Source: a virus
Taxonomy: Duplodnaviria > Caudoviricetes
Length of the DNA: 64,000 bases
Direction: 5' to 3' (one strand)
Virus record (IMG/VR): IMGVR_UViG_3300031555_001586
Span: 1 to 64,000 of that record
In this document: in pieces, positions 390 to 60,042 of the stretch
Layout: each line of letters starts with the position of its first letter
How positions within the stretch are numbered: position 1 is the first letter of the stretch
Notes under the pieces: generated by a model
Told to the model about the DNA's origin: nothing
The model's input: the letters and a program-made list of their open reading frames with translations, nothing else
Databases searched by the model: none
Translations under genes and position numbers: made by a program

Positions 390-426
390 TATAGTTCACC
401 TACTTTCACCACTTAAAATTTATCTT

Positions 427-675
427 TTAATCTGTTTCATACGGCTCTTTGAGATAATCAAGAATTTCATTTACTAATTCTTTTGGGTCATCACCATTAT
501 CTGCCCAATATGCAATCTCTACAGCCAATTCTTCGTCTGTCATACTACGAATACGGTCTGCGTTAGTATTTGCTACAAAATTTTCACACTCAATATCTAT
601 ACCATTGCAGTATCTCGTCAAAATATGATTTGCATAAATACATATATTATCTCTACACCATTTACAATTTGTCAT
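427..675 (-). CDS. hypothetical phage protein
   Basis: 82-aa ORF; its stop codon lies in a TAAAA-N6-TTTTA site (414-429). Confidence 0.7.
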   Translation of the reverse strand: MTNCKWCRDNICIYANHILTRYCNGIDIECENFVANTNADRIRSMTDEELAVEIAYWADNGDDPKELVNEILDYLKEPYETD

Positions 676-700
676 AATTTCACCATTTAAAATGCCTCTT

Positions 701-1015
701 CTAATTCAAATAAATATCAATATCCTCGCTCATAAAGCAGTAATCAAACTTTGCTTCTTTAACAGTCAGTTTATATTCCCATCCATTTAAATGATGATAA
801 AATATATTATTATTCCAAGTATTATAGTCAAACTTACGAATAATCTTACCACCGCTAAGAATACATACAACACCCCAAGTCTTAGTATTCTTAGCATACC
901 AATCCAAAACTTGTTTAAGAGTGCAACCAGCAGCACCTTCTATATAACCAAAACCGCTTCCCATATCTGACTTCTGAGGTTCTGTGACAATCTTTTTCAT
1001 TATCTTATCCTCCAT
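701..1015 (-). CDS. hypothetical phage protein
   Basis: 104-aa ORF in the minus-strand small-gene array. Confidence 0.7.
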   Translation of the reverse strand: MEDKIMKKIVTEPQKSDMGSGFGYIEGAAGCTLKQVLDWYAKNTKTWGVVCILSGGKIIRKFDYNTWNNNIFYHHLNGWEYKLTVKEAKFDYCFMSEDIDIYLN

Positions 1016-1029
1016 TTAAATTCTACCTT

Positions 1030-1455
1030 TTAATACCAAACTCTATGTACTTCGTGGATACTTTCCAAGCCATCATACTCATCAATTTCCCATTCAACAT
1101 CATCGGGGATTTCAATAACTTTCAAACTGGCACACATACCACTACACTTTCTACTACCATATTCCTCTATAATCGCAATTAAATCGGCATCTTTTCGAAC
1201 ATCATCTCTAAAATATACGATAGTTTCTCTTTCTAAATTATCAGTATAAGCGCCGTGGTCTTTGTTTACACATCTGATAAATAATTCATTCTTAACTTCT
1301 CCATCAATACGCTCGTAAAGGTCTTCTCCATCTCTCCAATTATACTTAACTTGCTTATAGAAATAAGCATTTTGCCCTCTTCGACGAAGTAATTCTCGAT
1401 ATGCAAAAGGAGAAAGACCAAAACCACCATAATCATTATTAATTACAATCTTCAT
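1030..1455 (-). CDS. conserved phage hypothetical protein
   Basis: MKIVIN..YGGFGLS and IEIPDDVEWEIDEYDG.ESIHE resemble a widespread uncharacterised phage family (from recollection); SD GAGG. Confidence 0.75.
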   Translation of the reverse strand: MKIVINNDYGGFGLSPFAYRELLRRRGQNAYFYKQVKYNWRDGEDLYERIDGEVKNELFIRCVNKDHGAYTDNLERETIVYFRDDVRKDADLIAIIEEYGSRKCSGMCASLKVIEIPDDVEWEIDEYDGLESIHEVHRVWY

Positions 1456-1475
1456 ATAACTTTACCTCTTAAAAC

Positions 1476-1868
1476 CTACATTTTATCCGCATACTCTTCT
1501 GGCTCACAATCCCATTGCCAAGACATATCCTTATCAAGTTTCCTATAGAACATCTCATAAATTTCTTGAGCGTGTTTGCAAATCTTCTTATAATTTTCCT
1601 TGTTAAACTTCAATTCCATACCATACCGATTCATACCACTATAACCGCCTTCCATCACATCAAAGAAAATATGCCTTGAATCATCTTCATTATAGGAAAA
1701 CTGACCATATACATAAACAGGAGTATCAAACAATGTAAACTTATATTCGCAATGTTCTTCCGCTTCCCAAGTGTGTCCATTGCAGTCTGTGTGTGTTACC
1801 GTCTTCTTTAGCGGCAATGCTTTAAGCCATTCATATGATGGCAGTTTAAGTTGATTCATATTTTTCAC
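1476..1868 (-). CDS. hypothetical phage protein
   Basis: 130-aa ORF; start overlaps the upstream stop. Confidence 0.7.
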   Translation of the reverse strand: MKNMNQLKLPSYEWLKALPLKKTVTHTDCNGHTWEAEEHCEYKFTLFDTPVYVYGQFSYNEDDSRHIFFDVMEGGYSGMNRYGMELKFNKENYKKICKHAQEIYEMFYRKLDKDMSWQWDCEPEEYADKM

Positions 1869-2101
1869 TTCCTTAAAGACCCCAGAATTTCTTTTCGTCT
1901 TTGCTCGGCTTTATCAATATAATTATTTGGAATAACAACAAGTTCTTCTCCGCAATCTGGACATTCTACAAGCCAAAACAGAGAATGTCCAGTCCCTCTT
2001 TTTCTTTCATCAATTTCTATTACATCACTATCTTCATACGAAAAATAACAATAACATCTTTCACAGAATACTGAATTTGGAATATCAATAATTTTTCTCA
2101 T
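1865..2101 (-). CDS. small Zn-ribbon protein
   Basis: ATG at 2101 with SD-like AAGGAAG; CERC and CPDC motifs. Confidence 0.6.
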   Translation of the reverse strand: MRKIIDIPNSVFCERCYCYFSYEDSDVIEIDERKRGTGHSLFWLVECPDCGEELVVIPNNYIDKAEQRRKEILGSLRK

Positions 2102-2114
2102 ATTTTCCACTTCC

Positions 2115-2300
2115 TTAAAACAGTTTTCTTCCACAAGTCGGACATCTATAGATTGTAAAATTACCAATCTTATAATTCTTTCCGTCTAAATCGCAAGTCA
2201 TATTGGATTCATCGTGTTCATTCTTGAGAATGGTCTGAGTCTTCCATTTATTTTCCACTTCATGCTTTACATATCTGGCATAATCACAGGTACTACACAT
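2115..2300 (-). CDS. small Zn-ribbon protein
   Basis: CSTC...YRCPTCGRKL. Confidence 0.65.
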   Translation of the reverse strand: MCSTCDYARYVKHEVENKWKTQTILKNEHDESNMTCDLDGKNYKIGNFTIYRCPTCGRKLF

Positions 2301-2326
2301 AAATTTTCCACCTTAAAATCACTTTT

Positions 2327-2527
2327 TTAATCGTTTACCTTTTCGCATTTGGCTAAGAAGTTATCGCTAACGAACATTACATCACCTGCGTAAGTTCCGT
2401 TGCCATCGTATACATCCACACCATATTTCATATCTGGTTCTCTAAAATCATTTACATTAACAATTTCGATATTATAGTCCATTCCATTTGTAGAATGTAA
2501 AATATATTTGTCTCCAACCTTAGCCAT
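2327..2527 (-). CDS. hypothetical phage protein
   Basis: 66-aa ORF, SD GGAGGAG, stop within site 2314-2329. Confidence 0.7.
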   Translation of the reverse strand: MAKVGDKYILHSTNGMDYNIEIVNVNDFREPDMKYGVDVYDGNGTYAGDVMFVSDNFLAKCEKVND

Positions 2528-2548
2528 TTAATTCTCCTCCACTTAAAA

Positions 2549-2842
2549 TCAGTCTTCTTCATACATCAATGAGTACAAAGACGGATTATGAATCTTGTTA
2601 TATTCTTTAATCTGATTTAGGTATTCTTCCCAAACTTCTTTGTCCTCTTCTGGAATTTTCCAATTGTCACCCTCTGGGCATCTGCCACACCACATGCAAC
2701 TATATCCATCACAAACCTGTGAGTACTGAGGCATAGGAATGGGCGGATAAAGTTTATCCCATTTCTCTTTCAAAGGATTTTTTGGATACTCTAAAGCAAC
2801 ATCCGTTCCATCCTCATTTACAACATTTAAATATTCATTCAT
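2549..2842 (-). CDS. hypothetical phage protein
   Basis: 97-aa ORF with SD GAGG. Confidence 0.65.
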   Translation of the reverse strand: MNEYLNVVNEDGTDVALEYPKNPLKEKWDKLYPPIPMPQYSQVCDGYSCMWCGRCPEGDNWKIPEEDKEVWEEYLNQIKEYNKIHNPSLYSLMYEED

Positions 2843-2869
2843 AATAAACCTCTTAAAATGCGTCTTTTA

Positions 2870-3103
2870 TTATTCGTAACTATATTGGTCTAAATCAATC
2901 TCAAATTCTTTAGCAAGATAATAAAATGAATTTCTTCCATTTGTTATATAAAGACCAGCATTATTACCGCCATTTCTCTGAAATTCAGACTCTGCGTACT
3001 TGATAACATCTGGTAGAGAATTATACAAGTTTCTAGCCTTTACCAAATGTTCATCAATTTCTTTTATAATTTCTATATATTCATCATTTAAAATGCTCTT
3101 CAT
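2870..3103 (-). CDS. hypothetical phage protein
   Basis: 77-aa ORF in array. Confidence 0.65.
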   Translation of the reverse strand: MKSILNDEYIEIIKEIDEHLVKARNLYNSLPDVIKYAESEFQRNGGNNAGLYITNGRNSFYYLAKEFEIDLDQYSYE

Positions 3104-3131
3104 TTATTTTCCATCCCTTAAAATCCGCAAT

Positions 3132-3413
3132 TTAAAACTCTACATTAAACTTCTTTTCTATATCGCACAGTGCGTATCCTGCTATATCTCTTTCCCAGAT
3201 ATCGCCAGACTTTAATACTTCATGAAAGTCTGGTCTCCACTTAGTATATTTCATCATGTTAATACAACTAAGTATTACTTTAAAACATTCTTCGCACACA
3301 TCTTCGATATATTCATCGTCTGTATTAATAAACAATTCACTATCCCAAATCTTATTTATAGCATTGTCGCTTTTAATTTCTTTTCCGCAAATATCACAAT
3401 GAATCTTTTTCAT
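3132..3413 (-). CDS. hypothetical phage protein
   Basis: 93-aa ORF with CDIC and CEEC motifs; SD GAGG. Confidence 0.65.
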   Translation of the reverse strand: MKKIHCDICGKEIKSDNAINKIWDSELFINTDDEYIEDVCEECFKVILSCINMMKYTKWRPDFHEVLKSGDIWERDIAGYALCDIEKKFNVEF

Positions 3414-3440
3414 ATATACATTTACCTCTTAAAGTTTCTT

Positions 3441-3722
3441 TTACTCCCACACTTCTCTTTTCTGCAAGCAATCCTTGTAGACCTCAGAAGATTCGCATTC
3501 TTTAATATTCAAACTTGCATAGTTGTTATATGCGTCTGCTCCAAAAATCTTTCCGCATACTGGGCATTCAAACTGTGCGTAATAGATTTGATAACTATAT
3601 CTTAAATCTCTCAACCAATCGCCATTGATAATATCTCTTCCATCAAACCACTTCTCGCACTTAGGACATTGCACAGCGATATGTCTAATAGGAGTCGATT
3701 CATATTCCACCCTTACATTCAT
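3441..3722 (-). CDS. Zn-ribbon hypothetical protein
   Basis: CPKC and CPVC pairs; SD GAGG. Confidence 0.65.
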   Translation of the reverse strand: MNVRVEYESTPIRHIAVQCPKCEKWFDGRDIINGDWLRDLRYSYQIYYAQFECPVCGKIFGADAYNNYASLNIKECESSEVYKDCLQKREVWE

Positions 3723-3735
3723 ATGTATTTACCTC

Positions 3736-4503
3736 TTAATCATCAATTTCAACTTCATAGTTCAACATTGCGTTATAGCATTCTTCCGTGATATTGCCGT
3801 TGTCGTACTCAATTTGTGCCACTTGCTTAATAATGTCTTCCTTATAAGGTTTATATCCTAAATAAAACGCTCTTTCAGGAGTAGAATAGCTTCCAAGCTC
3901 TACCGCTTTGTCTAAAAATGGATTGCGACATCTTGCTGCAAACCCATCCTCCGTACAATGAACTCCAATAGGATATTTGCCACGCTCCGCTTCTCGCTTC
4001 AAGAACAAGCAATTAACATTCTGTGGAACAAGCGTGCAAGTTTCTGGTGAATAAATTTTGTTCCTTTTAAATAAAATGTCTTTGTCTATTGCCCATCTCT
4101 TACCGCTAAACCATTTGTCAAAATTGGGTTGGTTATGCAACCATTCGTAAAAGTTGTCATATAACAACCACTCTTCACAACAAGTCGCATGATAATATGA
4201 CGGCTGTATTCTCTTCCGTTCATCATCAAAACATCTTTTAAGCATATCTACCCAAGTTTCATACTCTTTAACATTTTTTCCAACCCACTTAGGATATTTA
4301 TTGCCAATAATGCCAACCCCATATACTGTAGGATAGTAAGGATTCTTTATGCTACCAGATTTAAAATTTCCGTAAATAGTTTTTACCCTCGTCTTATATT
4401 CGTCTTGAAACTCTACGACAATATCACTTGAATTATTGTATTCAACAATCCTCATTAAACAACCTTGATTATTTAATTTTTCCTCGCCTAATCTATCAAC
4501 CAT
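3736..4503 (-). CDS. free-standing HNH-like homing endonuclease
   Basis: W..ML.RC, CEEWLLYDNF..W and IDKDIL...NKIYSPETC.LVP..VN motifs; paralog at 5956-6762. Confidence 0.7.
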   Translation of the reverse strand: MVDRLGEEKLNNQGCLMRIVEYNNSSDIVVEFQDEYKTRVKTIYGNFKSGSIKNPYYPTVYGVGIIGNKYPKWVGKNVKEYETWVDMLKRCFDDERKRIQPSYYHATCCEEWLLYDNFYEWLHNQPNFDKWFSGKRWAIDKDILFKRNKIYSPETCTLVPQNVNCLFLKREAERGKYPIGVHCTEDGFAARCRNPFLDKAVELGSYSTPERAFYLGYKPYKEDIIKQVAQIEYDNGNITEECYNAMLNYEVEIDD

Positions 4504-4535
4504 TCAACCACTCCAAAGTCGATAAAACTTGTATT

Positions 4536-4727
4536 TTAAAATTCCATCTTGCCTACAACATACTTTTCTTCCATGAAATTAAATGCTTTTCTGTCCAGAC
4601 CGCACTCTTCTTTCTTAATCAGAAAAAGTTGCTTTGCCATATAAACATCCATTTCGCTTGCATAAATTCCAATCGGCTCATAATCATCATCAAAAACATG
4701 TCTTGCTTTTAACAACCAAACTTCCAT
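4536..4727 (-). CDS. hypothetical phage protein
   Basis: 63-aa ORF, SD AGGAG, stop within site 4523-4538. Confidence 0.6.
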   Translation of the reverse strand: MEVWLLKARHVFDDDYEPIGIYASEMDVYMAKQLFLIKKEECGLDRKAFNFMEEKYVVGKMEF

Positions 4728-4845
4728 ATGTATCTCCTAAATTTTCCGTTGAACTTGTATTTTTATATAACCTTATCTTTTATACACACCAAAGAAGCAG
4801 GATAGATTTTCCATCTGCTTCGTTTGGTAGTATTATACATTATTT

Positions 4846-5925
4846 TCATGCAGTTGTCAACACATTTTCTTCACTTTTGAAAAATTCTTTATAACTTTCC
4901 TCAAGAGCTTCGTGTCTCGCCATGATAGCTGCGTTTCTTGCAACGCCTCCTGTACTTGCCTCCATATACTTGGTATAAACTTCCGTATCATTTTCAGTTT
5001 TGAAGAAGTTTACAAGCCACTCAGCCATCATAGATTCATTGATATTACTTTCCATGCTATGCTTAATAAATGGTGCAAGAGACACTAAATGAGTCTCAGT
5101 ATAAATCTTTTTAGCAACGTCCTTCTCACGATTACTAATCAATTCATCATGCGCACCAACAACATAGTCAAACACTTTAGCGAGTTCAAGTTTTTCCGCA
5201 TCAGAGATTTTGGTTTGTTCGATTAAAGGATTCAATTCTTTAGAAGCAAAAGAAATATTATCAATGTCCTTATTTAGCATCATCCACACTTTCAAAGAAA
5301 TAATGGCTTGATTCTTAGCTTGACGAGATTTTTCCGTAAGCATTTGATTAAACAGCTCATGTTCTCCAATGCTTAACAATCCCTCAATATCTTTGGAAGA
5401 AGCAAGAGAACGAGCCTTTGGAGAAAGAGGTCTGCCATTATTCAATTTAAGGAATAAAGTTCTTTCTTCTTCTAATGTGAGATTATCAAAGTATACAATG
5501 TTAAAAGTAGCAGTATTTAATATGTCCTGCAAGCCCTCTGGAAGCTCTGAGAACTTCATTCCGCTTATATCTAATGTAACTTCTTCATTCAATTCTTCAT
5601 CGAAATAAATCACTGGAAACAGGTCAGACAGCGCAAATTCATCATTCAAATATTCCTTTATAGTTGAAAGTCTTTGCTTACCATCGACCACAAAATATTT
5701 GTTATTGTTTTTATTTCCGTCTGGGTCAATCTTGCGACTTGCAAACATTTGAGGAACTGGGTAATTTGAGATTATAGACTCAATTAAATTAGATTTCTTT
5801 GCTCTATCCCATACCTTCGGTCTTTGGATGATATGTTCAAAATCAATTTTTCCATTCTTAACCATACTGGATATTTGCTTCGCAGACCAACTAATATTAG
5901 CTTTCTGTAGTGCCATTATAAACAA
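4846..5925 (-). CDS. DUF262 (ParB/Srx-like, GmrS-type) domain protein
   Basis: QRPKVW, LIESII.NYPVP, VVDGKQRLSTI and F.KLNNGRPLS motifs. Confidence 0.8.
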   Translation of the reverse strand: MFIMALQKANISWSAKQISSMVKNGKIDFEHIIQRPKVWDRAKKSNLIESIISNYPVPQMFASRKIDPDGNKNNNKYFVVDGKQRLSTIKEYLNDEFALSDLFPVIYFDEELNEEVTLDISGMKFSELPEGLQDILNTATFNIVYFDNLTLEEERTLFLKLNNGRPLSPKARSLASSKDIEGLLSIGEHELFNQMLTEKSRQAKNQAIISLKVWMMLNKDIDNISFASKELNPLIEQTKISDAEKLELAKVFDYVVGAHDELISNREKDVAKKIYTETHLVSLAPFIKHSMESNINESMMAEWLVNFFKTENDTEVYTKYMEASTGGVARNAAIMARHEALEESYKEFFKSEENVLTTA

Positions 5926-5955: not shown

Positions 5956-6762
5956 TTAGTCAGTAATTTCCACTTCATATCCCATCATAGCATCGTAACA
6001 AGACTTTGTAATATTGCCTTTAGAATATTCCATTTTGGCAACTTGTTTGACTAATTTTTCTTTATGGTTTTTGTATGCACAAAATGCTAGTTTCGGCGTA
6101 CCATAATAGCCCAAATAATCTCTCTCACCAGTAATCGGATTCATACATCTAGCTATAAATCCATCACGATTGTTACACTTTACAACCCCGATAGGTAAAA
6201 CTCCTCTGTGCAAATCATGTTTAACAAATAATTTATTTACATTATATGGAACTAAACAACAAGTGCTTGGAGAATATACTTTGTTGCCTTTAATTAAAAT
6301 ATCTTTATCAATATGCCATCCTTCATTGTTGTACCATTTGTCAAAATTTTCTTGACAATGAAGCCATTCATAAAAATTATCATATAACAACCAATCTTCA
6401 CAACAAGTAACATCTTTATAAGTAGGATATTTTTCTTTTACTTTTTTATCATAACTTCTCAAAAGAATATTCTGCCACGCATCATATTCTTTTACATGTT
6501 TTCCATCGTTCCATGTTGGATATTTATTTCCTGTCATTCCTACACCACAAACAACTGGATAATATGGATTTTTTACATTTCCCCTTTTGAAGTTCGTATA
6601 TTGCGTATGGACTCTCCCTCGATATTCGTCTTGAAATTCTACCACTATATTAACAGCGTCAATATATTCTACAATTTTCATTTTACAACCTTGTTTGTTA
6701 ACACCTTCTTCTCCAAGTCTTTCCGCAATTTGTTTTTCTACAAAACTTGTCCTTCTCCCCAT
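5956..6762 (-). CDS. free-standing HNH-like homing endonuclease (paralog of 3736-4503)
   Basis: Same motif set, e.g. HIDKDILIKGNKVYSPSTCCLVP. Confidence 0.7.
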   Translation of the reverse strand: MGRRTSFVEKQIAERLGEEGVNKQGCKMKIVEYIDAVNIVVEFQDEYRGRVHTQYTNFKRGNVKNPYYPVVCGVGMTGNKYPTWNDGKHVKEYDAWQNILLRSYDKKVKEKYPTYKDVTCCEDWLLYDNFYEWLHCQENFDKWYNNEGWHIDKDILIKGNKVYSPSTCCLVPYNVNKLFVKHDLHRGVLPIGVVKCNNRDGFIARCMNPITGERDYLGYYGTPKLAFCAYKNHKEKLVKQVAKMEYSKGNITKSCYDAMMGYEVEITD

Positions 6763-6806: not shown

Positions 6807-6918
6807 GACCACCGTACATTTTGTACGGTGCTTATATCAAAATTCACCATGACCACCGTACATTTTGTACGGTTTTTTTCCGTTCATACATATAAGTATA
6901 TATTATATATAAGTATAC
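6807..6918. repeat. double-palindrome module A: two ACCGTACA-TTT-TGTACGGT 44 bp apart plus AT-rich tract
   Basis: Palindromes start at 6811 and 6855; inverted copy at 31755-31870. Confidence 0.85.
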
Positions 6919-6951: not shown

Positions 6952-7737
6952 TTAGATGAAATCTTTTCCCAAATTTAACTCATTAAATACATCAGCCATT
7001 TCATCATTTGTAATGCCAATATATTTTGCTGTAGTTGCAGTATCTGAATGGTTAAAAATTTTTTGTAAAATAACTAACGCTTTATTTTTATCCTCTGCAT
7101 TATGCCATGCCCAAAATCCAAAAGTTTTACGTAGAGTATGTGAGCATATATTTTTATCTATATTAGCTTCATCAGCAACGTCTTTAATGATTCTTCCTAA
7201 AGAAATTTCTGTAATATGATTATTTCCCTTTCTTGATTTGAACAAATATTCATCCATATTTTCAACTGGATAATCTTTTATATATTCTGTAATCGCTTTC
7301 TTTACAGTTTCATTAAAAAACAGCTTAACAAATTTTCCAGTTTTCTTTGTCTTTTTTGGCTGTAAGCTATAAAATTCTTTAAAAGAACCATCATTATTTA
7401 TAAAGAAATTATAACGTAGGCCACACAAGTCACTTGCACGTATACCCAAATTTATTCCGATTAAGAATAACATTTTGTTCCGACAAGCAATTTGTTTTTT
7501 GTTGTTATTTGTTGCTTCGTTAATATGTTTGTCAAGCACATCAATCATTGCTTTAATTTCTTCTTGAGTAGTAAGCGGATAAACTTCGGAGGACACACCA
7601 GCGGTTTTATTAGGATGTCGTTTATCAATGCTTCCATCCTTATTATATCTAACCTCTGGCTTCTTAGACAACTTTCCATTAACAATAGTAAGGTTTATAA
7701 TATTACTTGTTGAATGTTTTCGAATAGGTAATGCCAT
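6952..7737 (-). CDS. tyrosine recombinase (phage integrase/Xer family)
   Basis: GIRASDL, HTLRKTFG, FNHSD and AKYIG give a complete R-HxxR-H-Y catalytic set. Confidence 0.9.
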   Translation of the reverse strand: MALPIRKHSTSNIINLTIVNGKLSKKPEVRYNKDGSIDKRHPNKTAGVSSEVYPLTTQEEIKAMIDVLDKHINEATNNNKKQIACRNKMLFLIGINLGIRASDLCGLRYNFFINNDGSFKEFYSLQPKKTKKTGKFVKLFFNETVKKAITEYIKDYPVENMDEYLFKSRKGNNHITEISLGRIIKDVADEANIDKNICSHTLRKTFGFWAWHNAEDKNKALVILQKIFNHSDTATTAKYIGITNDEMADVFNELNLGKDFI

Positions 7738-11358: not shown

Positions 11359-12117
11359 TTAACAATTTTCAATAAAAAAGAAATTGTTATCCCTTAAATA
11401 ATCTGGTGTATCTAATTCTCCATTTCTAATTTTTCTAATAATATTTCTATCTATTTTTTCTTCATCGCAAAATTTTCTTATACTATCGTATGTTTTACCG
11501 TTGTATGAAACTTTTATATTTTTAGGCTTTTGATAGTCGTAATCGCACATTTCTTTATCGATATACCTAAGTCCTTTTTGATACCATTCTAATGGCATTT
11601 TGCTTTTACCAGACAACCAATCTTTTATGCTCGAATATGGTATGTTAAAATATTCCGCACAATCTTTAGCGCAATCAAAAATAATTCCATCACAAATAGT
11701 CTTTCTTGCAAAATGAGATTTTCCGCCAATATTCGCATTTCTAAAATTATTTCTATTTTCTTCTGTTGGAATCCAACCTCTATTGACACCGCCACCAATA
11801 TTCAAATTGTAACCATTTGAATTTTCTGCTCCAATATACGAATTATATTTTTGTATATAAAATACTTCTCTTTCGTCTAGTTGCTTAACATCACATTCTT
11901 CTATTAATTCATATGAAAAATTTTCTACGCCATACTTTCTAAATGCCTTATATAAAACACTATTATTATTTTCAATTTCCCATATATGCTTTTTTAATCT
12001 ACGATAAACATCAACACTCTGCCCTATATAAACTTTGCCATTAATTTTATTCTCTATCTTATATATGCCACTTACTTTTTTTGTAAATGGAATTAAATTA
12101 CTAATCTTAATTTCCAT
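11359..12117 (-). CDS. GIY-YIG homing endonuclease
   Basis: SGIYKIENKINGKVYIGQS..RR...H and NGYN motifs. Confidence 0.9.
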   Translation of the reverse strand: MEIKISNLIPFTKKVSGIYKIENKINGKVYIGQSVDVYRRLKKHIWEIENNNSVLYKAFRKYGVENFSYELIEECDVKQLDEREVFYIQKYNSYIGAENSNGYNLNIGGGVNRGWIPTEENRNNFRNANIGGKSHFARKTICDGIIFDCAKDCAEYFNIPYSSIKDWLSGKSKMPLEWYQKGLRYIDKEMCDYDYQKPKNIKVSYNGKTYDSIRKFCDEEKIDRNIIRKIRNGELDTPDYLRDNNFFFIENC

Positions 12118-12843: not shown

Positions 12844-13704
12844 TTAAGAAACAGTAGGTACTTCCATGCCAAGAATATATTTCATTGCCTTTTCAGCCTT
12901 GCCACTTGCAGATACAATAAAACGATTGTCGTTTCTCAAAACCTTTAACCAACTCTGGATATATGCAGCAGAATTTTTAAAAGTTTTAGAAGTTTCAATT
13001 CCAACATGATTCATAAGGAACGCCGAACCAATTTCGGCAATCAATTCTTCCTTGCTGTAATCCTCAGAACCAAAACCAGCAAGTTTAACACCGCTATCCA
13101 ATCTGCCAAGTCTGTCTCTGTGCCCTGTGCTGTGAATCATTTCATGGAACAGCGTACTATAAAACTCAGCGATATCCTTATACTGTTCCTTGCAAGGGAC
13201 TTGAATGTAATCCATCATAGGACTATAGAAAGCATCATTGCTTACCACTTCTTTGATAAGAATGTTTTCTCTTTCCTTGTAATTGTTCTTAATCTTCTCT
13301 GCTTCTTCGATAGGCTCATGGTTAATAGGTTTAATATCTTTAGGCTCGATACCATCTACCTGTGACACATGAAATACATTAATATATTTCAAAAGAGGAA
13401 TAGATTTCTTTTCCACTTTGCCATTCTTAACTTCTTCTGTCTGAAAAATCTTCCAGAACACTACGATTTCAGATTTTTCACCCTTGCGAACCTTACCACC
13501 CAAATCGCTCCACTGTTTGTAAGTAGCGTATTCACCTTCATGCTTCAAAAGCATCTGATTCAAAAGGGAATATGGCTTCTTGCTTACTCTATTGTAAGCG
13601 CCACTTGCTACACCGCTCCAAGGCTTAGACCAAGGAATGACACCATTTTCCAACTGCTCAATAATTCTGTTTGTTACCTCTTCATAGATATTAAACTTTG
13701 CCAT
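12844..13704 (-). CDS. ardC: ArdC-family ssDNA-binding antirestriction protein (DUF1738 plus zincin-like domain)
   Basis: IPWSKPW, YATYKQW..LGGKVRKGEK, FHEMIHSTGH and YSKEELIAEIGSAFL. Confidence 0.9.
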   Translation of the reverse strand: MAKFNIYEEVTNRIIEQLENGVIPWSKPWSGVASGAYNRVSKKPYSLLNQMLLKHEGEYATYKQWSDLGGKVRKGEKSEIVVFWKIFQTEEVKNGKVEKKSIPLLKYINVFHVSQVDGIEPKDIKPINHEPIEEAEKIKNNYKERENILIKEVVSNDAFYSPMMDYIQVPCKEQYKDIAEFYSTLFHEMIHSTGHRDRLGRLDSGVKLAGFGSEDYSKEELIAEIGSAFLMNHVGIETSKTFKNSAAYIQSWLKVLRNDNRFIVSASGKAEKAMKYILGMEVPTVS

Positions 13705-14314: not shown

Positions 14315-15016
14315 TCAGCTATTTACCTTTTCATTCTTTTTGTCACTAGGCTTTACTTCCTTGCAAACCTGATAAAATCCATTGACTTCATCATCTTCAA
14401 TAATCAGCGCTGTTAACGCTCCACCAAAGACGCAACCAGTATCAATATCAATGTTATAAGCAAAAGTATATACTGGCTTGCTGATATCATTCAGCGTCAA
14501 TGTTGGAGTATGCCCAAAGACAACTGTCTTATGATATTCTTTTGTAGTATAAATAAACGGCTCTCTTATCCACAACAAAGTCTCTTTGTCTTGTTCTTCG
14601 ATAGGCTTATAAACGTCTACACCAGCATGAACATAAATAAAATGTTCATCTTCATGATATAAAGGAAGAGTTCTAATCCACATCATATCGTCTTCAAGTT
14701 GCTTATCAAAACCATGGTAAGAATCTATTGTGTTATAACCACCATTAAAAAGCCAATTTCTTTCTCCGTTCCTATAATAATCCAGCATCATATCTTCATG
14801 ATTACCCATCAGTGCAATTACATTATCATTATTTTCCTGCAAGCTTCTAACAAGTTCAATTACTTTTCGACTATCCTCACCTCTATCAATATAGTCTCCA
14901 AGAAAAACTAGTTTATCTGTATTCTTATTGTATTCACCGCTTGTTTCCAATTCAAAAAGCAATTCTTTTAGTTCATTGTAACAACCATGGATATCGCTAA
15001 TCACTATTGTTTTCAT
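14315..15016 (-). CDS. PPP-family Ser/Thr protein phosphatase (metallophosphoesterase)
   Basis: DIHG, GDYIDRG, GNHE, HAG, GHTP and IDTGCVFGG motifs. Confidence 0.9.
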   Translation of the reverse strand: MKTIVISDIHGCYNELKELLFELETSGEYNKNTDKLVFLGDYIDRGEDSRKVIELVRSLQENNDNVIALMGNHEDMMLDYYRNGERNWLFNGGYNTIDSYHGFDKQLEDDMMWIRTLPLYHEDEHFIYVHAGVDVYKPIEEQDKETLLWIREPFIYTTKEYHKTVVFGHTPTLTLNDISKPVYTFAYNIDIDTGCVFGGALTALIIEDDEVNGFYQVCKEVKPSDKKNEKVNS

Positions 15017-23656: not shown

Positions 23657-23678
23657 ATTAAAATTGTCCTTTTATTAG

Positions 23679-23888
23679 TCAAACGAGTGCTGTGCAGTTT
23701 CCTGTTTCCTCGCAGTAGTGATAATATATAACTTTCATATCATCATAGATGATATCGGTCATTGCACCATAATCATCAGTTAATGTTACGGCTTTTCCGT
23801 CTTGTCCTTTTGTGATGATTCTGAAATTCTTCGGTGCTTTTGGCAGGGTCATAAACAAATTCCAAACCGTCATGATTATTTCTCCCAT
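23679..23888 (-). CDS. hypothetical phage protein
   Basis: 69-aa ORF next to site 23893-23908. Confidence 0.55.
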   Translation of the reverse strand: MGEIIMTVWNLFMTLPKAPKNFRIITKGQDGKAVTLTDDYGAMTDIIYDDMKVIYYHYCEETGNCTALV

Positions 23889-23923
23889 ATCATAAAATTA
23901 TCTTTTTAACTTGTATAATGTTA

Positions 23924-24205
23924 TTAGTTATCAATGATTTCTAAGCTATCCCACCAAGCTTTACCGCCACCAGAAATTCCATAATAGTCAATAAAGGAAT
24001 TTATATGCCTCATAGTAGTTGCGCTGTAGCCCCACCAAAGTCTCTGGAATTGTCCATTGACGATTCTTGCTACAATGGTGTTATAACTTTTTAGTTCGAT
24101 TATTCCGTTATCGTGCTCGATTGCTACGGCCTTATTATAGAAAGATTTTCTTCCGTCAATAGGGGAAAGAGTAATAATTTTAGGGGTGTTGTTAGCGTGT
24201 TTCAT
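23924..24205 (-). CDS. conserved phage hypothetical protein
   Basis: KSFYNKA, LKSYNTIVA and SATTMRHINSF; SD AGAAAGGA. Confidence 0.7.
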   Translation of the reverse strand: MKHANNTPKIITLSPIDGRKSFYNKAVAIEHDNGIIELKSYNTIVARIVNGQFQRLWWGYSATTMRHINSFIDYYGISGGGKAWWDSLEIIDN

Positions 24206-24482
24206 GGTGATTTTCCTTTCTTTGGTGTTTGTGTGTTGTTTTGTTTTGTTGTAGTTATTATAACATAATTTTATTTGTTTGTCAAGTAGTTTATGGAATA
24301 TTTATGGAATATTTTTGTTATTTTGATAATTATTTTTAGAAGTGGTGTGGAGGTGGTATGGGGTGTGTGGTGTGGTATGTGTATATTATACGGTTATTTA
24401 GTAGTTTGATATATGTATAATATACTATTGATATAAAAATAAAAAAGAGTGGAACTTGCTCCACTCTTTATATATTTAATTG

Positions 24483-24632
24483 TTATAGATTGTTACCGAA
24501 AAGTGTTTCGTCAATTAGACGGTCAACAAGTTCGCAAATTTCCCATTCTTCCATATTGCTGATATTTTTTTCGTAGTGTTCGCAAATATCCTTTGCTTGT
24601 TCATAGGTAAGAATAAAGTTAATGTTTTCCAT
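24483..24632 (-). CDS. small acidic protein (49 aa)
   Basis: MENINFILTYEQAKDICEHY..., SD AAGGAG, own promoter and terminator. Confidence 0.6.
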   Translation of the reverse strand: MENINFILTYEQAKDICEHYEKNISNMEEWEICELVDRLIDETLFGNNL

Positions 24633-25133
24633 GTTGTTTCTCCTTTATAATTTTGGTAATTTTGGTTTTGTTATATACCTTTTTGGTATGGCTGTATTAT
24701 ATCATGTTTGGAATATTTTGTCAAGTGGTATTTTTTATTTTTTTTGGTGTGTTGTAGATTATAAAATTATTATCGAGAAACGATAAATTTATAGAATTTA
24801 TAGATTGTATTTTTGTGTGTATCTATTTTTAATCAGAATCACAATAAAACTTTTTCGTACCGTTACTCAAAACACTATCAACAGTTTTTCCACAACCCAA
24901 TATAAGTTTCCAAATAACCCCATACAAGTTTTCCAAAAACCGCTCATCGGGTTTTCAAAACCCTATCATCAGTTATTTAATAACCTAACTTAATTTGTAT
25001 AATATACACCAGTATCCACTGATAATGTGTATAACTCGAAACTTTTATAACTCATAATTTTCATCACTCGTTCGTCCCACAATCCGTATATTATACCAAA
25101 TCTTCCAGCTCAAATATTCACTCAAATATTCAC

Positions 25134-25481
25134 CAAACAAATGTTCGTATATTTTGTATATTATACCTCTGGTATATTATACCATTTCCTTCCATTTTGA
25201 ATGTTAAAAAATCAGGTTCTTTGACATTCGCCAGTATTTTGTATATTATACCAATTTTCCAAACGTATGTTCATATTGATAAATACAAACAAATGTTCGC
25301 TTTGTTAAACAAAAAAATAAAAATGTTTCACGTGAAACATTTTCTTCCAAAAGTTACAAATATTTACATTTAGTATATTATACCAATTTGTATATTATAC
25401 AATGATATTCCATATGAGTCATAAAAAATATCACTCGTTGGTTCCTGTATATTATACCGCTGGTATATAAACATATGTTCG
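25134..25481. promoter_or_regulatory. cluster of 4 Firmicutes LexA (SOS) box-like sites
   Basis: xAAAC-N4-GTTCG/A at 25134, 25260, 25286 and 25468. Confidence 0.55.
25324..25339. promoter_or_regulatory. parS: parS (Spo0J/ParB binding site)
   Basis: Exact TGTTTCACGTGAAACA consensus inside a 22-bp perfect palindrome (25321-25342). Confidence 0.9.
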
Positions 25482-25734
25482 TATATTATACCGCTCTTTT
25501 ATTTTGGTATATTATACCGTTGGTATATCTTTTGGTATAATATACGATTCCGTATATTATACCTGCGGTATACTCCATTTTATATTTGGTATATTATACC
25601 GCTTTATTTTCTGGCATATTATACCGCTTTAGTTTCTGGTATATTATACCGCTTTAGTTGTGTCTGAAAACACAAAAAAAGAGGATGGAATTTCTTCCAC
25701 CCTCTAATACCTATAACATTATTTGTTTATCTTT

Positions 25735-26043
25735 TTAAGATTGTCTAATCAAATAAATAAACAGAACAATAAAACCAAGCCAACCAAAGCACACCAGAAG
25801 CGATATAAACGGCATTTTAATTAGTAACCAAGCTTCCGCAAGCGTGGCGGATACCTCAGCCCATACAGCCACCAGCTCGCCAATAGAGACAACAAAAAGA
25901 ATCGTTGCACATGCTGTAATTGTTATTAGAATATACCAAAACAATTTAGCCATGAATTTTTCCAGCGCTGTCTTGTTTATCTTTATATCAAATACTCTTT
26001 CTTTATTAGTTTTATTGACTTCCTTTTTTACTGTCTTTTCCAT
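25735..26043 (-). CDS. membrane protein with two TM helices
   Basis: Two long hydrophobic segments; SD AAGGAG. Confidence 0.7.
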   Translation of the reverse strand: MEKTVKKEVNKTNKERVFDIKINKTALEKFMAKLFWYILITITACATILFVVSIGELVAVWAEVSATLAEAWLLIKMPFISLLVCFGWLGFIVLFIYLIRQS

Positions 26044-26062
26044 AGTATTTTCTCCTTTTTAA

Positions 26063-26188
26063 TTAACAAATAACAGCAAGTGAAAAGAAAATTGCAACGG
26101 CAGAGGCCACATAAAATATGCTTATAATAACCATAACAAACTCTTTTATATAATTACGGCGATAATCTTTAGGAACTTCGTAATACAT
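26063..26188 (-). CDS. small single-TM protein (41 aa)
   Basis: MYYEVPKDYRRNYIKEFVMVIISIFYVASAVAIFFSLAVIC; SD AAGGAG. Confidence 0.55.
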   Translation of the reverse strand: MYYEVPKDYRRNYIKEFVMVIISIFYVASAVAIFFSLAVIC

Positions 26189-26554
26189 AATCAATTCTCC
26201 TTTTGTTTTCTGTTGTTGTTTGTTGTTTGATTACAAGAGGATTATAACATAAATTTACTTATTTGTCAAGTATTTTTTATAAAATTCTGATAATTTTTCC
26301 GATAATTTTCCGAAGACATCTTGTATATTATACCAAAGGTATATCTTTATATATTATACCAAAAGTATAAACTGTTTAATTACGTATATTATACCGTTGG
26401 TATATTCCATTTGTTGTTCTGGTATATTATACCGATTGTATAATATACCGACGGATACCAGAAAATATATTTGGTATATTATACGAAATTACGCCACACA
26501 AAAAACAAAAGAAAAAGAAGGTGGATTTCTCCACCTTCCATATAACTTTATTTG

Positions 26555-26809
26555 TTATTCCTCTTCCTCCTCTTCCTCTTCTCTGTACATCAGTTCTTCA
26601 AAACTTCCATAGCCCAGCCAATCAGCAATAGTATCGTCCTCAAACCAAAAGAAATCATTAATTTCAACGTCCTCCATTCCATCAGGATAAATTTCTTCCA
26701 ACATGTTTTCAATAGTGTCAATTTCATCTTCGGTCAAATACTTTACAGTATCTTTTGCACCGCTCCAAAAATCAAAGTTTACAAGTCTTTCTTCCGTGTA
26801 GATTTTCAT
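26555..26809 (-). CDS. highly acidic conserved phage protein
   Basis: ATG at 26809 after SD AAGGAGG; NFDFWSGAKD, INDFFWFE and a poly-Glu tail. Confidence 0.7.
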   Translation of the reverse strand: MKIYTEERLVNFDFWSGAKDTVKYLTEDEIDTIENMLEEIYPDGMEDVEINDFFWFEDDTIADWLGYGSFEELMYREEEEEEEE

Positions 26810-27363
26810 GGTATTTTCCTCCTTGTTGTTTTTATCTGTTGTTGTGTTCTGTTCTTCTTTACACCTATATAATAGCATATATTTTCTAAGTTGTCAAGTA
26901 GTTTTTATTTATTTTCCAAGAAATTTTCCAGTATTTTTATACATTTGTATATTATACGAATCATAAAATTTATCACTCGTTCGTTACTGGCCTCGTATAT
27001 TATACCAGTGGTATATAATATAAATTTTCCGAGCGCAGCTTGCCATACATCCGTATATTATACCAAATATTTTCCGCATGATGTTTCTATAATATTCCGT
27101 ATAATATACCAATAATACATATATAATAATATTCCGTATAATATACGATTATATATTTATTAATTATATATGTTATATACTGTTAGTATAATATACCGAT
27201 TGGTATATTATACCTCTGGTATAAATAATAAATAAATCTTCCAAACAACTCGTATATTATACCAAATTTCTATGCTGTTTATACATCGGTATAATATACG
27301 AATTTTCCAAGAAAAAATTCTAAAAGAAAAACAGTGGAGATAAATTCTCCACTGTCTGTTTAT

Positions 27364-27603
27364 TTAAAGTCCAGCCATTGCCAGAATAGCGTCCTCATAA
27401 TAGCAAGCTCTTTCCGTCACTGCAACCTTTTTCATTCTAGGATAAAAATTTCCTCTCAACCAAAACAACTGCAATTCTTCTGTAGTGCTATAATTACCGC
27501 TCGCATAGTTTTTCCAAGCAAGGTCAAAAGCTTGTTTTGCTCTCTTCATTTTTCCAGCCTTAATATTGTCATTACAAGCGTTGATATAATCCATGGTAGA
27601 CAT
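27364..27603 (-). CDS. hypothetical phage protein
   Basis: 79-aa ORF with SD GGAGG. Confidence 0.65.
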   Translation of the reverse strand: MSTMDYINACNDNIKAGKMKRAKQAFDLAWKNYASGNYSTTEELQLFWLRGNFYPRMKKVAVTERACYYEDAILAMAGL

Positions 27604-27618
27604 AAATTTTCCTCCGTA

Positions 27619-27795
27619 TTATTTCGCTAAAAACATGCTTTTGTCGATTTTTTCCAATGCAATCATCAAACCTGTAATTACTCCATTGTAATGGTCTTCG
27701 TGCATAGCTCCGCAATTCTCCAACATTTCTTCTTCGAACTCAATCTGCAATTTAATTGCAAGTTTCAAAACGTCCGCATATTCTTTAATACCCAT
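27619..27795 (-). CDS. small hypothetical protein
   Basis: MGIKEYADVLKLAIKLQ..., SD GGAGG. Confidence 0.55.
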   Translation of the reverse strand: MGIKEYADVLKLAIKLQIEFEEEMLENCGAMHEDHYNGVITGLMIALEKIDKSMFLAK

Positions 27796-28155
27796 AAAAT
27801 TTCCTCCATGTTGTGTTGTTCTGTTGTTGTTTACACACTTATAATAGCATACTTTTTATCATTTGTCAAGTAGTAAATTAAAAATTCCAACAAAAAATTC
27901 CACAAAAATCCATTCAGTATTTTGTATATTATACCGTTTCCCATTTAGTTTTTATCTGTTGTTCCTCCGTATAATATACCAAGGTATAATATACTAAATT
28001 TTCTTCCTGCAAAACTCCGTATATTATACGTTTGCGTATAATATACCAAGATATAAAACTCCGTATAATATACCAAACTTTCCATATTTAAAATCCAAAA
28101 CAAAAAAAGAAAAAGAGGGAAGTTTTCTTCCCTCTAATCTTTATATCTTTATCTG

Positions 28156-28461
28156 TTAGATATCGTAATAAACTTCTTCCTTGTAATACCCTTCCATTTC
28201 AACCGCTACTGTGAATCTATCCTGTACAGAGAAAGAATATCCAAAGTCCTTGTTGTATTTTCTGCTTGCTTCCGTTGCTACATTGTAATAAGCGTCTACC
28301 GCTTTTTCCGCATCATAAACGCCCTTCTTTGCTTTCTTCTTAAGGCTGTTAATAACCGCTGTGGTCATCCCTCTGTAAAGTTCTCCGTCATTGGTAGCAT
28401 ACAAGAAAAGCTCTCTGGATTCAGTGGTTTCCTTATAAATCATGTTTTTTGTACGTTTCAT
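28156..28461 (-). CDS. conserved phage hypothetical protein
   Basis: ATG at 28461 after SD GGAGG; RELFLYATNDGELY and KGVYDAEKA. Confidence 0.7.
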   Translation of the reverse strand: MKRTKNMIYKETTESRELFLYATNDGELYRGMTTAVINSLKKKAKKGVYDAEKAVDAYYNVATEASRKYNKDFGYSFSVQDRFTVAVEMEGYYKEEVYYDI

Positions 28462-29116
28462 GGTGTATCCCTCCATAAGTTGTTGTTGTTTGGTGTTGTT
28501 CTTTATCTGTCTATAATATATCATATAAAAAGTGGCTTGTCAAGTAGTAAATTAAAAATTCCAAACAATTTTTTCCATGTTGAATGGCTTTGTATATTAT
28601 ACCAACTGCCAGCATACAAAGCCCGTATATTATACCGCTCTGGTATAATATACGGATAACGTAGCAGCATCACTATTTGGTATATTATACCACGGGTATA
28701 ATATACCTCTGGTATACCTGAAACGGTATAATATACGGCTTGCGTATATTATACCGAACACCAAGAAAAGCGTATATTATACCAAGCTGTAAACAGCGCC
28801 GTATAATATACCAAAGACAGTACAAAACAAAACCGTATATTATACCAATTGGTATAGCTCTGGACTCTTTCAGCCTCTCAACAATATCCCAAACAGTATT
28901 TTATACCGCTCTCAGGCTCTCAGTGGCTCTCTCTGCCATTTTAATAGTCTCAGAGGGTTAACACAAGTGAAGAAAAAACGACGCTCTCAGAGGCTCACAG
29001 AGGCCCTCAGAACGTCGGTATAATATACGGAAATGATAGAAGTATAGACGGCGGAAATCAGTGGTATAATATACGATTGCACACAATTAAAATAGGCATA
29101 AAAAAAGAGGGGCATT

Positions 29117-31754: not shown

Positions 31755-31870
31755 ATAGTATTTTTATATATCTATATACTTATATGTATAGAACGGAAAA
31801 AAACCGTACATTTTGTACGGTGGTCAAAGCCAAAAATACAATTAGCACCGTACATTTTGTACGGTGGTCA
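31755..31870. repeat. double-palindrome module B (inverted copy of 6807-6918)
   Basis: Palindromes start at 31803 and 31847, the same 44-bp spacing, with the same TATATACTTATATGTAT..GAACGGAAAAAAA flank. Confidence 0.85.
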
Positions 31871-36261: not shown

Positions 36262-36681
36262 TTGAAAACAATTATAACAAAAGAAAATTTAATTGGTATG
36301 ATTTCAGACAGATGCAGCGATGATTATATTTCGATTGAAGAATTATCTAAGTTAATTGATAAAGTAACTGATGAAAGAGGAATTATTTCTAAAAAGAAAT
36401 TAATTAAGTCTGTTAGAGGACACCATACAAAGGCGGTTATTAAGACTGTTTATTCTACATTAGAAGAATCACTTTTCAACATCCTTTCTTCTGTTGATGA
36501 AAATCAAGATGTTTCTATTAAATTATTTGAAGGTGTTACTCTTGATGGATGTTATTCTCCTGAAAAAACAAAGAAAAATAATTTAACTGGAAAAATGAGT
36601 TTTGTAGAGAGCAAAATCAAACCAAAATTCAACATTACTCGCTCTTATTGCGAGAAATTAAATAAAAATAATTTGGTATAA
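36262..36681 (+). CDS. HU/IHF-like DNA-binding protein (YonN-like position)
   Basis: TTG start after SD GGAGG; C-terminal SIKLFEG...NNLTGK....SKIKPKF pattern of the HU arm. Confidence 0.65.
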   Translation: MKTIITKENLIGMISDRCSDDYISIEELSKLIDKVTDERGIISKKKLIKSVRGHHTKAVIKTVYSTLEESLFNILSSVDENQDVSIKLFEGVTLDGCYSPEKTKKNNLTGKMSFVESKIKPKFNITRSYCEKLNKNNLV

Positions 36682-53521: not shown

Positions 53522-54556
53522 ATGGCAAAAAGTAGAAAAACATTTAGAAAAGTTATAACCTCAGAGTATTTGACGGCTCAAATTAATAAAGAAAACATTC
53601 GGCTTATGGAGAGATTCTTAAAAAATTTTGCCACAAAACGCTCTCCTAAATCGGTTGTTGTATATAGAAGCAATTTGACGATTTTTTTTACATGGAATTT
53701 GCTTGAAAATTCTAATAAACCATTTGCTAAAATTCGCAAGCTCGAAATGCTTGATTTCTTCGATTACGCTTTAAGTGAATTGAAATGGTCTCCAAACCGT
53801 TTCCACCAGTGTCATAGTTCGCTATCTAGTTTTTCAGATTGGGTTGAAAATTATTATGATGAAGTCGAGGGATATGAAAATTTCAGAAATATAGTTAAGA
53901 AAATTGAAAAGCCGTCAAAAGAAGCGGTTAGAGAAAAAACTGTTTTGAAAGAAGAGGACATTGACAAGATATTTGTAGTTCTTGAAGAAGAAAACAGAGT
54001 TCAAGAGCAATGTTTATTAGCTCTAGCCATCTCTTGTGGCGCAAGAGTTTCTGAATTGGCTCAGTTTACCACTTCCCTAATTGATGAGGATAATACTGTT
54101 TTTGAAGGATTGTTTTTGGAAACCACTGAAAAGATTCGCACGAAAGGTTCTGGAACTCAGGGAAAGATGCTTAAGAAATATATTTTAAAAGATATGTTTT
54201 TGCCATATTATCATAAGTGGTTAAAAGAAAGGGAAGAAATTATTAAAGAAACTGGTCAAGACCATGATTCTCTATTTATTACGAGAGATGGAAATCCAGC
54301 AACCGCAGATAGACTAAGAGATTGGATTGGTACTTGGGGCGACATTGTTAATCAACCATCGTACCCTCATATGTATCGCCACTATCAAATAAGTTTGTTA
54401 AAGAGATTGGAAATTGACGATGATTTGATTGTGTATCTTACTGGTTGGGCAGAGGGCACTGGTCATACAATGATTTCAATTTACAACGACAATGATTTAA
54501 CTGAGACGCAGTTTGCGTGTCTTAGCAATCTAAAAGATTTTTTAAAAAATAAATAA
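53522..54556 (+). CDS. tyrosine recombinase (SPbeta YomM-like position)
   Basis: CGARVSEL, KGSG, HMYRHY and TGW...MISIY; directly upstream of the tape-measure gene. Confidence 0.85.
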   Translation: MAKSRKTFRKVITSEYLTAQINKENIRLMERFLKNFATKRSPKSVVVYRSNLTIFFTWNLLENSNKPFAKIRKLEMLDFFDYALSELKWSPNRFHQCHSSLSSFSDWVENYYDEVEGYENFRNIVKKIEKPSKEAVREKTVLKEEDIDKIFVVLEEENRVQEQCLLALAISCGARVSELAQFTTSLIDEDNTVFEGLFLETTEKIRTKGSGTQGKMLKKYILKDMFLPYYHKWLKEREEIIKETGQDHDSLFITRDGNPATADRLRDWIGTWGDIVNQPSYPHMYRHYQISLLKRLEIDDDLIVYLTGWAEGTGHTMISIYNDNDLTETQFACLSNLKDFLKNK

Positions 54557-59993: not shown

Positions 59994-60042
59994 AGTTATA
60001 ATACACACAACAAGAAGTTGCGATTCTTGTTAAAAACAAAAG

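Follow-up and report, generated by a model that had tools for sequence, protein, structure and literature searches.

TAAAA-N6-TTTTA sites as candidate joints for cassette exchange between the accessory genes of SPbeta-like phages

The DNA examined here (the window) comprises 64,000 nt, positions 1–64,000 of the virus record IMGVR_UViG_3300031555_001586, a single contig of 89.7 kb that is labelled 'own' in genome comparisons. It derives from an SPbeta-like phage that encodes a YonO RNA polymerase. An array of small genes at 414–4538 is punctuated by the 16-bp motif TAAAA-N6-TTTTA, and the same motif recurs at other small-gene junctions of this phage and its relatives. The motif is real, and so is its tie to cassette exchange: homology between relatives breaks at the motif, and identical centres stand in conserved order between unrelated flanks, findings that together support a cassette-exchange reading. 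On the comparative sequence evidence presented below, it seems on balance probable that these sites are fixed, individually labelled joints between the accessory genes of SPbeta-like phages, at which exchange takes place between sites with the same centre.

The motif is present in 17 copies in the window, as against 1.42 expected from dinucleotide shuffles (the largest shuffled count was 5), and in 21 copies in the whole 89.7-kb record. When all spacings from 0 to 20 were scanned in the window, enrichment was observed at spacing 6 only (17 copies vs approximately 1.2). The region 414–4538 holds five exact and three one-mismatch copies over 13 gene junctions. The original prediction, which was made from the sequence of the window, had described such arm-N6-arm repeats at small-gene junctions, and their presence is borne out. 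The sites and runs of sites in the window are as follows.

4764–4780, minus strand, decayed first site in the operon leader, TAAAAATACAAGTTCAA, with centre TACAAG like the exact site at 4523
4523–4538, minus strand, exact site, centre TACAAG (coding strand); the left arm contains the stop codon of gene 4536–4727
3119–3134, minus strand, one-mismatch site, right arm ATTTA on the plus strand
2854–2869, minus strand, exact site, centre GACGCA
2314–2329, minus strand, exact site, centre AAGTGA
1470–1485, minus strand, exact site, centre TGTAGG
1017–1032, minus strand, one-mismatch site, centre GGTAGA, left arm TAAAT
688–703, minus strand, one-mismatch site, centre GAGGCA, right arm TTCTA
414–429, minus strand, exact site, centre GATAAA
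15429–17422, minus strand, second run, with eight exact sites between genes of 56–78 aa, downstream of promoters at 17787 and 17690
23659–23908, minus strand, two more exact sites, centres GGACAA (23659) and AGATAA (23893)
54559–54574, exact motif copy after the late-module recombinase gene

Two weaker copies had also been proposed. That at 3430 proved to be a decayed copy with a 5-nt centre, whereas that at 2544 consists of a right arm and Shine-Dalgarno (SD) sequence only, with the upstream stop codon lying within TTTTAA. The right arm alone is found at junctions 2101/2115 and 1859/1865, and neither arm at 3722/3736.

On the coding (minus) strand the repeated unit reads stop/TAAAAG-N3-RR-TTTTA-AGnGGAGG-N8-ATG, with a purine-rich centre. 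The description of one arm as holding the upstream stop codon while the other runs into the next SD sequence proved accurate; the TAA of the left arm is the stop codon at 38 of the 88 sites scored in this phage group. Just 5 bp per arm are conserved in the window's clade, the right flank being the SD sequence and the left flank free. At SPbeta sites, outer TCT/AGA blocks extend the arrangement to 11-6-11; these blocks are not present at the window sites. The arms are all-or-none in character: a perfect left arm was found at 141 of 242 sites with TTTTA, SD sequence and start codon and a single mismatch at 12, the remainder looking random. Exact copies exceed other spacings approximately 18-fold, and one-mismatch copies do not rise above background. 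The core has dyad symmetry, its arm centres lying 11 bp apart. A hairpin in the mRNA, one of the alternatives in the original prediction, is contradicted by its folding energy (+0.7 kcal/mol or worse), by a median arm-pairing probability of 0.05, and by an absence of covariation (9 complementary vs 12 non-complementary double variants). All-or-none arms, together with the lack of a stable hairpin and of covariation, suggest that both arms are recognized base by base by a single phage factor, which the 11-bp distance would make most simply a dimer on double-stranded DNA.

Evidence for exchange comes from the six central bases. Among the members of the window's clade (the window's own record, R9, R11 and G001–G003), 147 pairs of sites with the same centre were found where approximately 12 were expected, and in the SPbeta family 120 where approximately 4 were expected. 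No similarity was detected within 200 nt on either side of 139 of those 147 pairs, and BLASTP comparison of the flanking genes in R9, R11, G001 and G003 left 107 of 119 same-centre pairs without homology on either side. Close relatives of the window's phage are R9 (154.7 kb) and R11 (124.3 kb), contigs of gut Clostridia assemblies whose YonO proteins are 73–75% identical to that of the window. Since the conserved genes of this trio are only 70–77% identical at the DNA level, the 16/16 identity of approximately half of the sites is far above what drift would leave. The centres are, moreover, collinear: Kendall's tau was 1.0 for R9 and G003 (21 sites), R11 and G003 (27), SPBc2 and phi3T (21), SPBc2 and Goe14 (24) and phi3T and Goe14 (19), and 27 of 28 sites were in order between R9 and R11. 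Where a 16-bp island is kept and both flanks are replaced, the replacement must end at the island; the sites are therefore where exchange happens, whatever else they do.

Outside the array at 414–4538, the site at 16418 (GTGTGG) is common to R9, G001 and G002, that at 23659 to G001, and that at 23893 to R9 and G003. In G002 (IMGVR_UViG_3300022654_000047), a lone gene of 59 aa at 44240–44464 lies between two identical full sites with centre GGATAA, and the centre pair GGATAA then TGACGA is present twice, with different genes between.

Breakpoints of homology were determined in pairwise comparisons of SPBc2, SPbetaL1, phi3T and Goe14; these four SPbeta-family genomes share ancestry, so that events are counted more than once in the figures that follow. 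Between 14 and 22 of the approximately 120–130 homology ends per genome lie no more than 25 nt from a motif, compared with 1.3% at random positions, and 21 of the 34 SPBc2 sites have a homology end nearby. In the alignments, homology begins at the left edge of the motif or stops at its right edge. Breakpoints were borne by 75% of motif junctions vs 28% of other junctions (odds ratio 7.9, p 5e-18), by 65% vs 31% when small co-directional genes only were considered, and by 62% vs 41% when intergenic length was matched (p 0.044). When the motif labels were shuffled within 10-kb bins the count averaged 32 and never exceeded 44, vs 57 observed. The proposal that breaks in related phages would coincide with the motif is thus upheld in the SPbeta family.

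For the array at 414–4538 itself, the informative comparison is with a 75-kb contig, L120. The GmrSD-like gene, promoter and leader are 68% identical between the two (own 5445–4763 vs L120 50–744; pairwise alignment, blastn), and this homology ends exactly at the left-arm TAAAA of the first site (4764–4780 in the window, where the site is decayed). The centres TGTAGG (1470) and GATAAA (414) follow one another in the same order in both, 581 bp apart in L120 vs 1056 bp in the window, and the open reading frames (ORFs) between them showed no protein similarity at E values up to 1. In L120, TGTAGG is the first site past the conserved promoter and leader. To judge from its place in the chain, the window site at 688 (GAGGCA) is probably the decayed counterpart of the middle centre of L120, GAGACA. 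The GATAAA centre is found in L120, L121, R9 and R11; beyond it, L120, R9, R11 and G003 go on with GACAGA, GTAAAG and more shared centres, and the window's record ends there. No partner for GACGCA (2854) was found among viral contigs, partners of AAGTGA were uninformative, and a scan for TACAAG gave 67 loci, mostly single-site and in part due to chance. For the remaining centres of the array, no informative partner was found.

The distribution of the motif was determined by comparing its count in each genome with that of a reversed-pattern control, with the following results.

SPbetaL1, motif 33, control 0
BUCT082, motif 37, control 0
G001, motif 28, control 0
G003, motif 44, control 2
R9, motif 51, control 2
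R11, motif 59, control 3
Perkons, motif 17, control 2
Tsamsa, motif 23, control 3
Geobacillus E3, motif 30, control 7
c-st, motif 31, control 7
phiCD211, motif 26, control 7

SPBc2 has 34 copies. No excess was seen in the Enterocloster phages PMBT24 (0 motif copies, 6 control) and CB473P1 (1 and 6) or in Thomasclavelia phage TR-TP2 (4 and 6), and counts in five host genomes were near those of the control. Enrichment in phages and not in hosts marks the motif as a signal of the phage lineage rather than of host expression machinery. In G001 its orientation tracks the downstream gene at 27 of 28 sites, and in G003 at 33 of 44. A link between the motif and YonO was considered and rejected: Tsamsa, Geobacillus E3 and phiCD211 show enrichment but gave no YonO match, and Enterocloster phages with distant YonO-like genes lack the motif. 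No published description of the motif was found in the SPbeta literature searched. In SPbeta-family genomes a third repeat, ATAAAAATAAAATTA, adjoins several motif copies (in SPbetaL1, at approximately 21200, 99340 and 109700).

The genes among which the sites lie form a polycistronic early operon. The run had been described as promoterless; it is in fact headed by a perfect promoter, and what stands of that description is the absence of consensus promoters, and likewise of terminators, within the array.

4832–4860, minus strand, perfect sigma-A promoter (TTGACA-17-TATAAT), 12/12 consensus; promoter and leader are conserved in L120
12–4727, minus strand, fourteen co-directional genes of 61–255 aa, all ORFans but the HNH endonuclease gene at 3736–4503

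Ten 12/12 sigma-A promoters were located on the minus strand, the direction of the genes across window positions 1–30 kb. That at 4860–4832 heads the first array, and those at 17787 and 17690 head the second (15.2–17.4 kb), which is also without internal terminators. Early genes at 18–30 kb that have their own promoters are without the motif. Gene 4536–4727 is bracketed by the decayed and the intact copies of centre TACAAG. In the operon leader (4728–4830), a hairpin (GAAGCAGATG...CTGCTTC) and a box (ATAAGGTTATA) are both kept in L120, and AAGGTTATA was found again in other leaders, at approximately 8980, 19270, 33100 and 38640. Paralogous HNH endonuclease genes (phrog_953) at 3736–4503 and 5956–6762 flank gene 4846–5916, which has a GmrSD N-terminal (DUF262) domain.

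Assignment of the phage to the SPbeta-like group rests on its large terminase, approximately 41% identical to terminases of SPbeta-like Bacillus phages, and on a 971-aa protein (33128–36043) with 46% identity to YonO, the RNA polymerase of SPbeta; a megablast search of the window against the phage collection gave zero matches. The gene for this YonO-type single-chain polymerase is followed by a weak HU-like ORF (36262–36681) at the position of SPbeta yonN. HU-like YonN was considered as a reader of the motif; homologues occur in several relatives, but the window copy is below the family cut-off, and it is retained as a lead only. The genes at 11359–12117, 12844–13704 and 14315–15016 encode a homing-type endonuclease of the GIY-YIG family, an anti-restriction/zincin protein (ArdC-like) and a calcineurin-like phosphoesterase. 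A crude gene call gave only short ORFs, on both strands, at 24200–29100 and 60000–64000.

Two tyrosine recombinases of the window were considered as enzymes for the sites.

6952–7737, minus strand, small integrase, catalytically complete by residues
53522–54556, plus strand, late-module tyrosine recombinase, candidate site reader; Pfam PF00589, E value 4.7e-16; R, K, HxxR, W and Y all present by alignment

The original prediction had tentatively assigned the sites to the recombinase at 6952–7737. Its catalytic R, HxxR and Y are indeed present, but a role at the sites is not supported, and it is probably not part of the motif system. The gene, which is separated from the operon promoter by 2.1 kb on the upstream side, is kept in R9 and R11; no homologue was found in SPbeta or in four other motif-rich records (G001–G004), and of the recombinases compared, integrases of the motif-free Enterocloster phages come closest to it. 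It is adjoined by palindromes of its own: the 19-bp sequence ACCGTACATTTTGTACGGT occurs in four exact copies, as two pairs (6811–6873 and 31803–31865) with 44 bp between copies within a pair, and one of the pairs lies beside the gene. These palindromes are its likely substrate.

If the enzyme acting at the sites is, as we infer, a conserved recombinase-fold protein, the candidate in the window is 53522–54556. Its subfamily is found in SPbeta, Goe14, BUCT082, Perkons, Tsamsa, E3, phiL47, a Staphylococcus SPbeta-like phage, G003, G004, R9 and R11, and was not found in three motif-free phages; of the strongly motif-rich relatives tested, c-st and phiCD211 alone gave no homologue. Membership of the tyrosine recombinase family is uninformative by itself, as all phages tested have at least one such protein, and because the correlation between recombinase and motif is confounded by descent, 53522–54556 is a candidate only; recombinases of the YopP type are likewise candidates only. 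The SPBc2 homologue (AF020713, 40301–41338) was missed by the Pfam integrase model and, having HxxK, may be a non-catalytic DNA binder like MrpR. A motif copy is found 3' of the late recombinase gene in own, G003, R9 and R11; the centres differ and the copies lie partly inside terminator-like stems, and no weight was given to them.

In the mechanism that we favour, a phage-encoded protein, which would probably bind double-stranded DNA as a dimer, would recognize every base of the identical 5-bp arms of each site, and the six central bases would be specific to a slot in the genome. Related phages keep the order of the centres, and the genes between them would come from a pool of unrelated ORFans; this combination of kept order and unrelated genes suggests exchange between two phages at sites with the same centre. 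Matching centres would presumably be needed for exchange, by analogy with the matching overlap regions that a tyrosine recombinase needs, and the tyrosine-recombinase geometry originally recognized in arm-6 bp-arm fits, with a crossover region that must match. Since the upstream stop codon lies within each joint and the next SD sequence directly beside it, a cassette could be swapped without scrambling the order or breaking the operon. A more specific form of this idea, which we put forward tentatively and hold to be possible but short of probable, is a natural recombinase-mediated cassette exchange. Dozens of sites with identical arms and mutually incompatible 6-bp overlap 'addresses' would be served by a recombinase-fold protein, and coinfecting phages or resident prophages would trade single accessory genes slot by slot, with gene order and operon expression undisturbed.

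Several observations weigh against labelled joints as the explanation. The 5 bp conserved per arm in this clade are short for a recombinase arm, and ordinary homologous recombination on conserved islands of 16–24 bp could yield the same pattern with no dedicated enzyme. No recombinase subfamily is present in every motif-rich phage, as c-st and phiCD211 are without a clear homologue of the 53522–54556 subfamily, and the SPbeta copy has HxxK for HxxR, whereas members of the window's clade have all catalytic residues. Homologous genes exist both with and without the motif. Exact motif copies at both ends were found for 0 of 20 clean single-gene insertions in the SPbeta family, most of which are intron-like or break at SD sequences or start codons; excision from motif to motif does not fit this result and was rejected. 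In the diverged trio of own, R9 and R11 the breakpoint test gave no signal and carries no information, the arrays being without any DNA similarity to one another. Binding and cleavage are predicted, and exchange is read from sequence comparison.

The most serious rival is a regulatory operator, bound by a dimeric phage protein that would silence or time the early operons. Exchange would then be a by-product, because the sites would be the only conserved islands available to general (relaxed) homologous recombination. The dyad symmetry, the 11-bp distance and the strict arms suit an operator, as do the limitation of the motif to phages and its confinement to operons behind early sigma-A promoters; in SPbeta, copies are also found in the interval from a terminator to the aimR and yorE promoters, which should yield little sense RNA. 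There is precedent in phages for dozens of near-invariant intergenic sites in the stoperators (PMC9283540, PMC6550527) and the Cluster O 17-bp palindrome (PMC4351075), and in SPbeta itself an inverted repeat of 5-7-5 form is read by MrpR, a repressor with the recombinase fold (PMC10516654). A protein that reads arms only would, however, leave unexplained both the retention of six of six centre bases between phages whose conserved genes are approximately 72% identical and the perfect collinearity of the centres. No reader protein was found, and chromatin affinity purification sequencing (ChAP-seq) of MrpR yielded just ten peaks, at its operator SPBRE (PMC10516654). We judge an operator to be unlikely, though it deserves serious attention. 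Far less credible is a signal in the early mRNA, whether a processing site or the target of a phage RNA-binding protein or RNase, through which the translation or stability of individual cistrons would be set. It would suit a motif that lies between stop codon and SD sequence in operons without internal promoters, is purine-rich in its coding-strand centre and is missing at genes with their own promoters, but the unstable hairpin and the lack of compensatory change described above, the SPbeta copies outside likely transcripts and the conserved, ordered centres make it very improbable.

Slighter still is the prospect that the motif is a phage-specific promoter of a middle class, with the strictness of T4 late promoters and one transcript per small gene. 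The strict sequence, its position 10–17 nt before start codons and its gene-tied orientation would be expected of a promoter; but no homologue of sigma region 2 was found in own phage, SPbeta or three relatives, the left arm TAAAAG is without the −7 T, and a palindrome is not directional. The SD sequence begins 1–3 nt past the right arm, which leaves no room for a transcription start site. YonO late transcription starts at one site elsewhere (PMC5467207), and the region after yonO has zero copies of the motif. The integron-like platform of the original prediction, in which the recombinase at 6952–7737 would capture and excise single promoterless cassettes, has in our estimation only a marginal chance of being correct, despite the promoterless, co-oriented genes behind one promoter, the R, HxxR and Y of that recombinase, and the gene at 4536–4727 between intact and decayed copies of one centre. 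The recombinase is absent from SPbeta, G001–G004 and other motif-rich phages, groups with integrases of motif-free phages and adjoins its own palindromes, no structure resembling attC was found, and the clean indels do not run from motif to motif. What endures of the original proposal is gene exchange at the sites, as seen in the breakpoints and in the ordered centres, two from the array at 414–4538 included; the integron analogy, lacking an attC-like fold, attI and an adjacent intI, and with 0 of 20 indels, does not.

The accessory genes of phages, many of them likely to function in counter-defence or host takeover, turn over rapidly, and how they are exchanged without wrecking operons is an old question of modular theory. 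A chain of slot-specific joints, if confirmed, would be a concrete mechanism for such exchange. SPbeta and phi3T of Bacillus subtilis are genetically tractable and are known to form hybrids; as both contain the motif, the mechanism is directly testable. In annotation, the centres can serve as a coordinate system for aligning hypervariable regions whose genes are dissimilar.

It was of interest, finally, to compare the sites with known systems. Integron attC sites are folded single-strand substrates of 57–141 bp beside an intI/attI/Pc platform, and their cassettes move singly as circles. The likeness lies in promoterless, co-oriented ORFs behind a shared promoter, with gene content varying among relatives; neither a folded attC nor an intI beside attI and a promoter was found. 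Stoperators of Cluster A mycobacteriophages (PMC9283540, PMC6550527) are dozens of near-invariant sites in short intergenic gaps, asymmetric, oriented with transcription and bound by the immunity repressor, whereas the core of the window motif is palindromic. In Cluster O, a 17-bp palindrome (PMC4351075) combines dyad symmetry with a variable centre, and no function is known for it; slot-specific or order-conserved centres have not been reported for either. The recombinase-fold repressor MrpR/YopR of SPbeta has as its operator SPBRE, which is present in approximately ten copies in promoters (PMC10516654). SPBRE resembles the window motif in belonging to the same phage family, in being a short inverted repeat and in having a reader with the tyrosine-recombinase fold, and differs in not being located at cistron junctions. 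The motif is not SPBRE itself, as the sequence derived from seven of the ten reported MrpR-bound promoter regions, AAATACAAAWAATATGTATA, is different. An 11-mer of the window (9600–30800), GTATA(A/T)TATAC, has 80 copies genome-wide, far above any other 11-mer; by position, and by its resemblance to the SPBRE arms ATACA/TGTAT, it may be this phage's counterpart of SPBRE.

The promoter-early stem-loop (PeSL) cassettes of T4-type phages (Arbiol et al. 2010, PMC2839356; PMC4122927) are another parallel. There too, short conserved motifs lie between small non-essential ORFs in hyperplastic regions, and insertions, deletions and replacements between relatives break at them, as homology does at the motif in the SPbeta family and between the window and L120. 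PeSLs are composites of a promoter and a terminator with one common sequence, whereas the window motif, a 16-bp sequence in which every copy has a conserved centre of its own, is neither, having no −35/−10 pair, G+C stem or T run. There is also a formal likeness to the site-specific recombination sites. In the literature searched, no natural genome was found described in which dozens of different overlaps form a chain, and the arms of 11–13 bp in lox, FRT and dif sites differ from the 5 bp conserved in the window's clade, short also of the approximately 9–13 bp of tyrosine-recombinase core sites; the recombinase of the sites is a candidate only. Heterospecific lox/FRT and dif/pdif Xer sites nevertheless have inverted arms around an overlap of 6–8 bp whose sequence decides which sites are partners, and a segment between two different overlaps undergoes ordered replacement, or recombinase-mediated cassette exchange; both inverted arms around such an overlap (5-6-5) and an overlap shared between partners are found at the sites described here.

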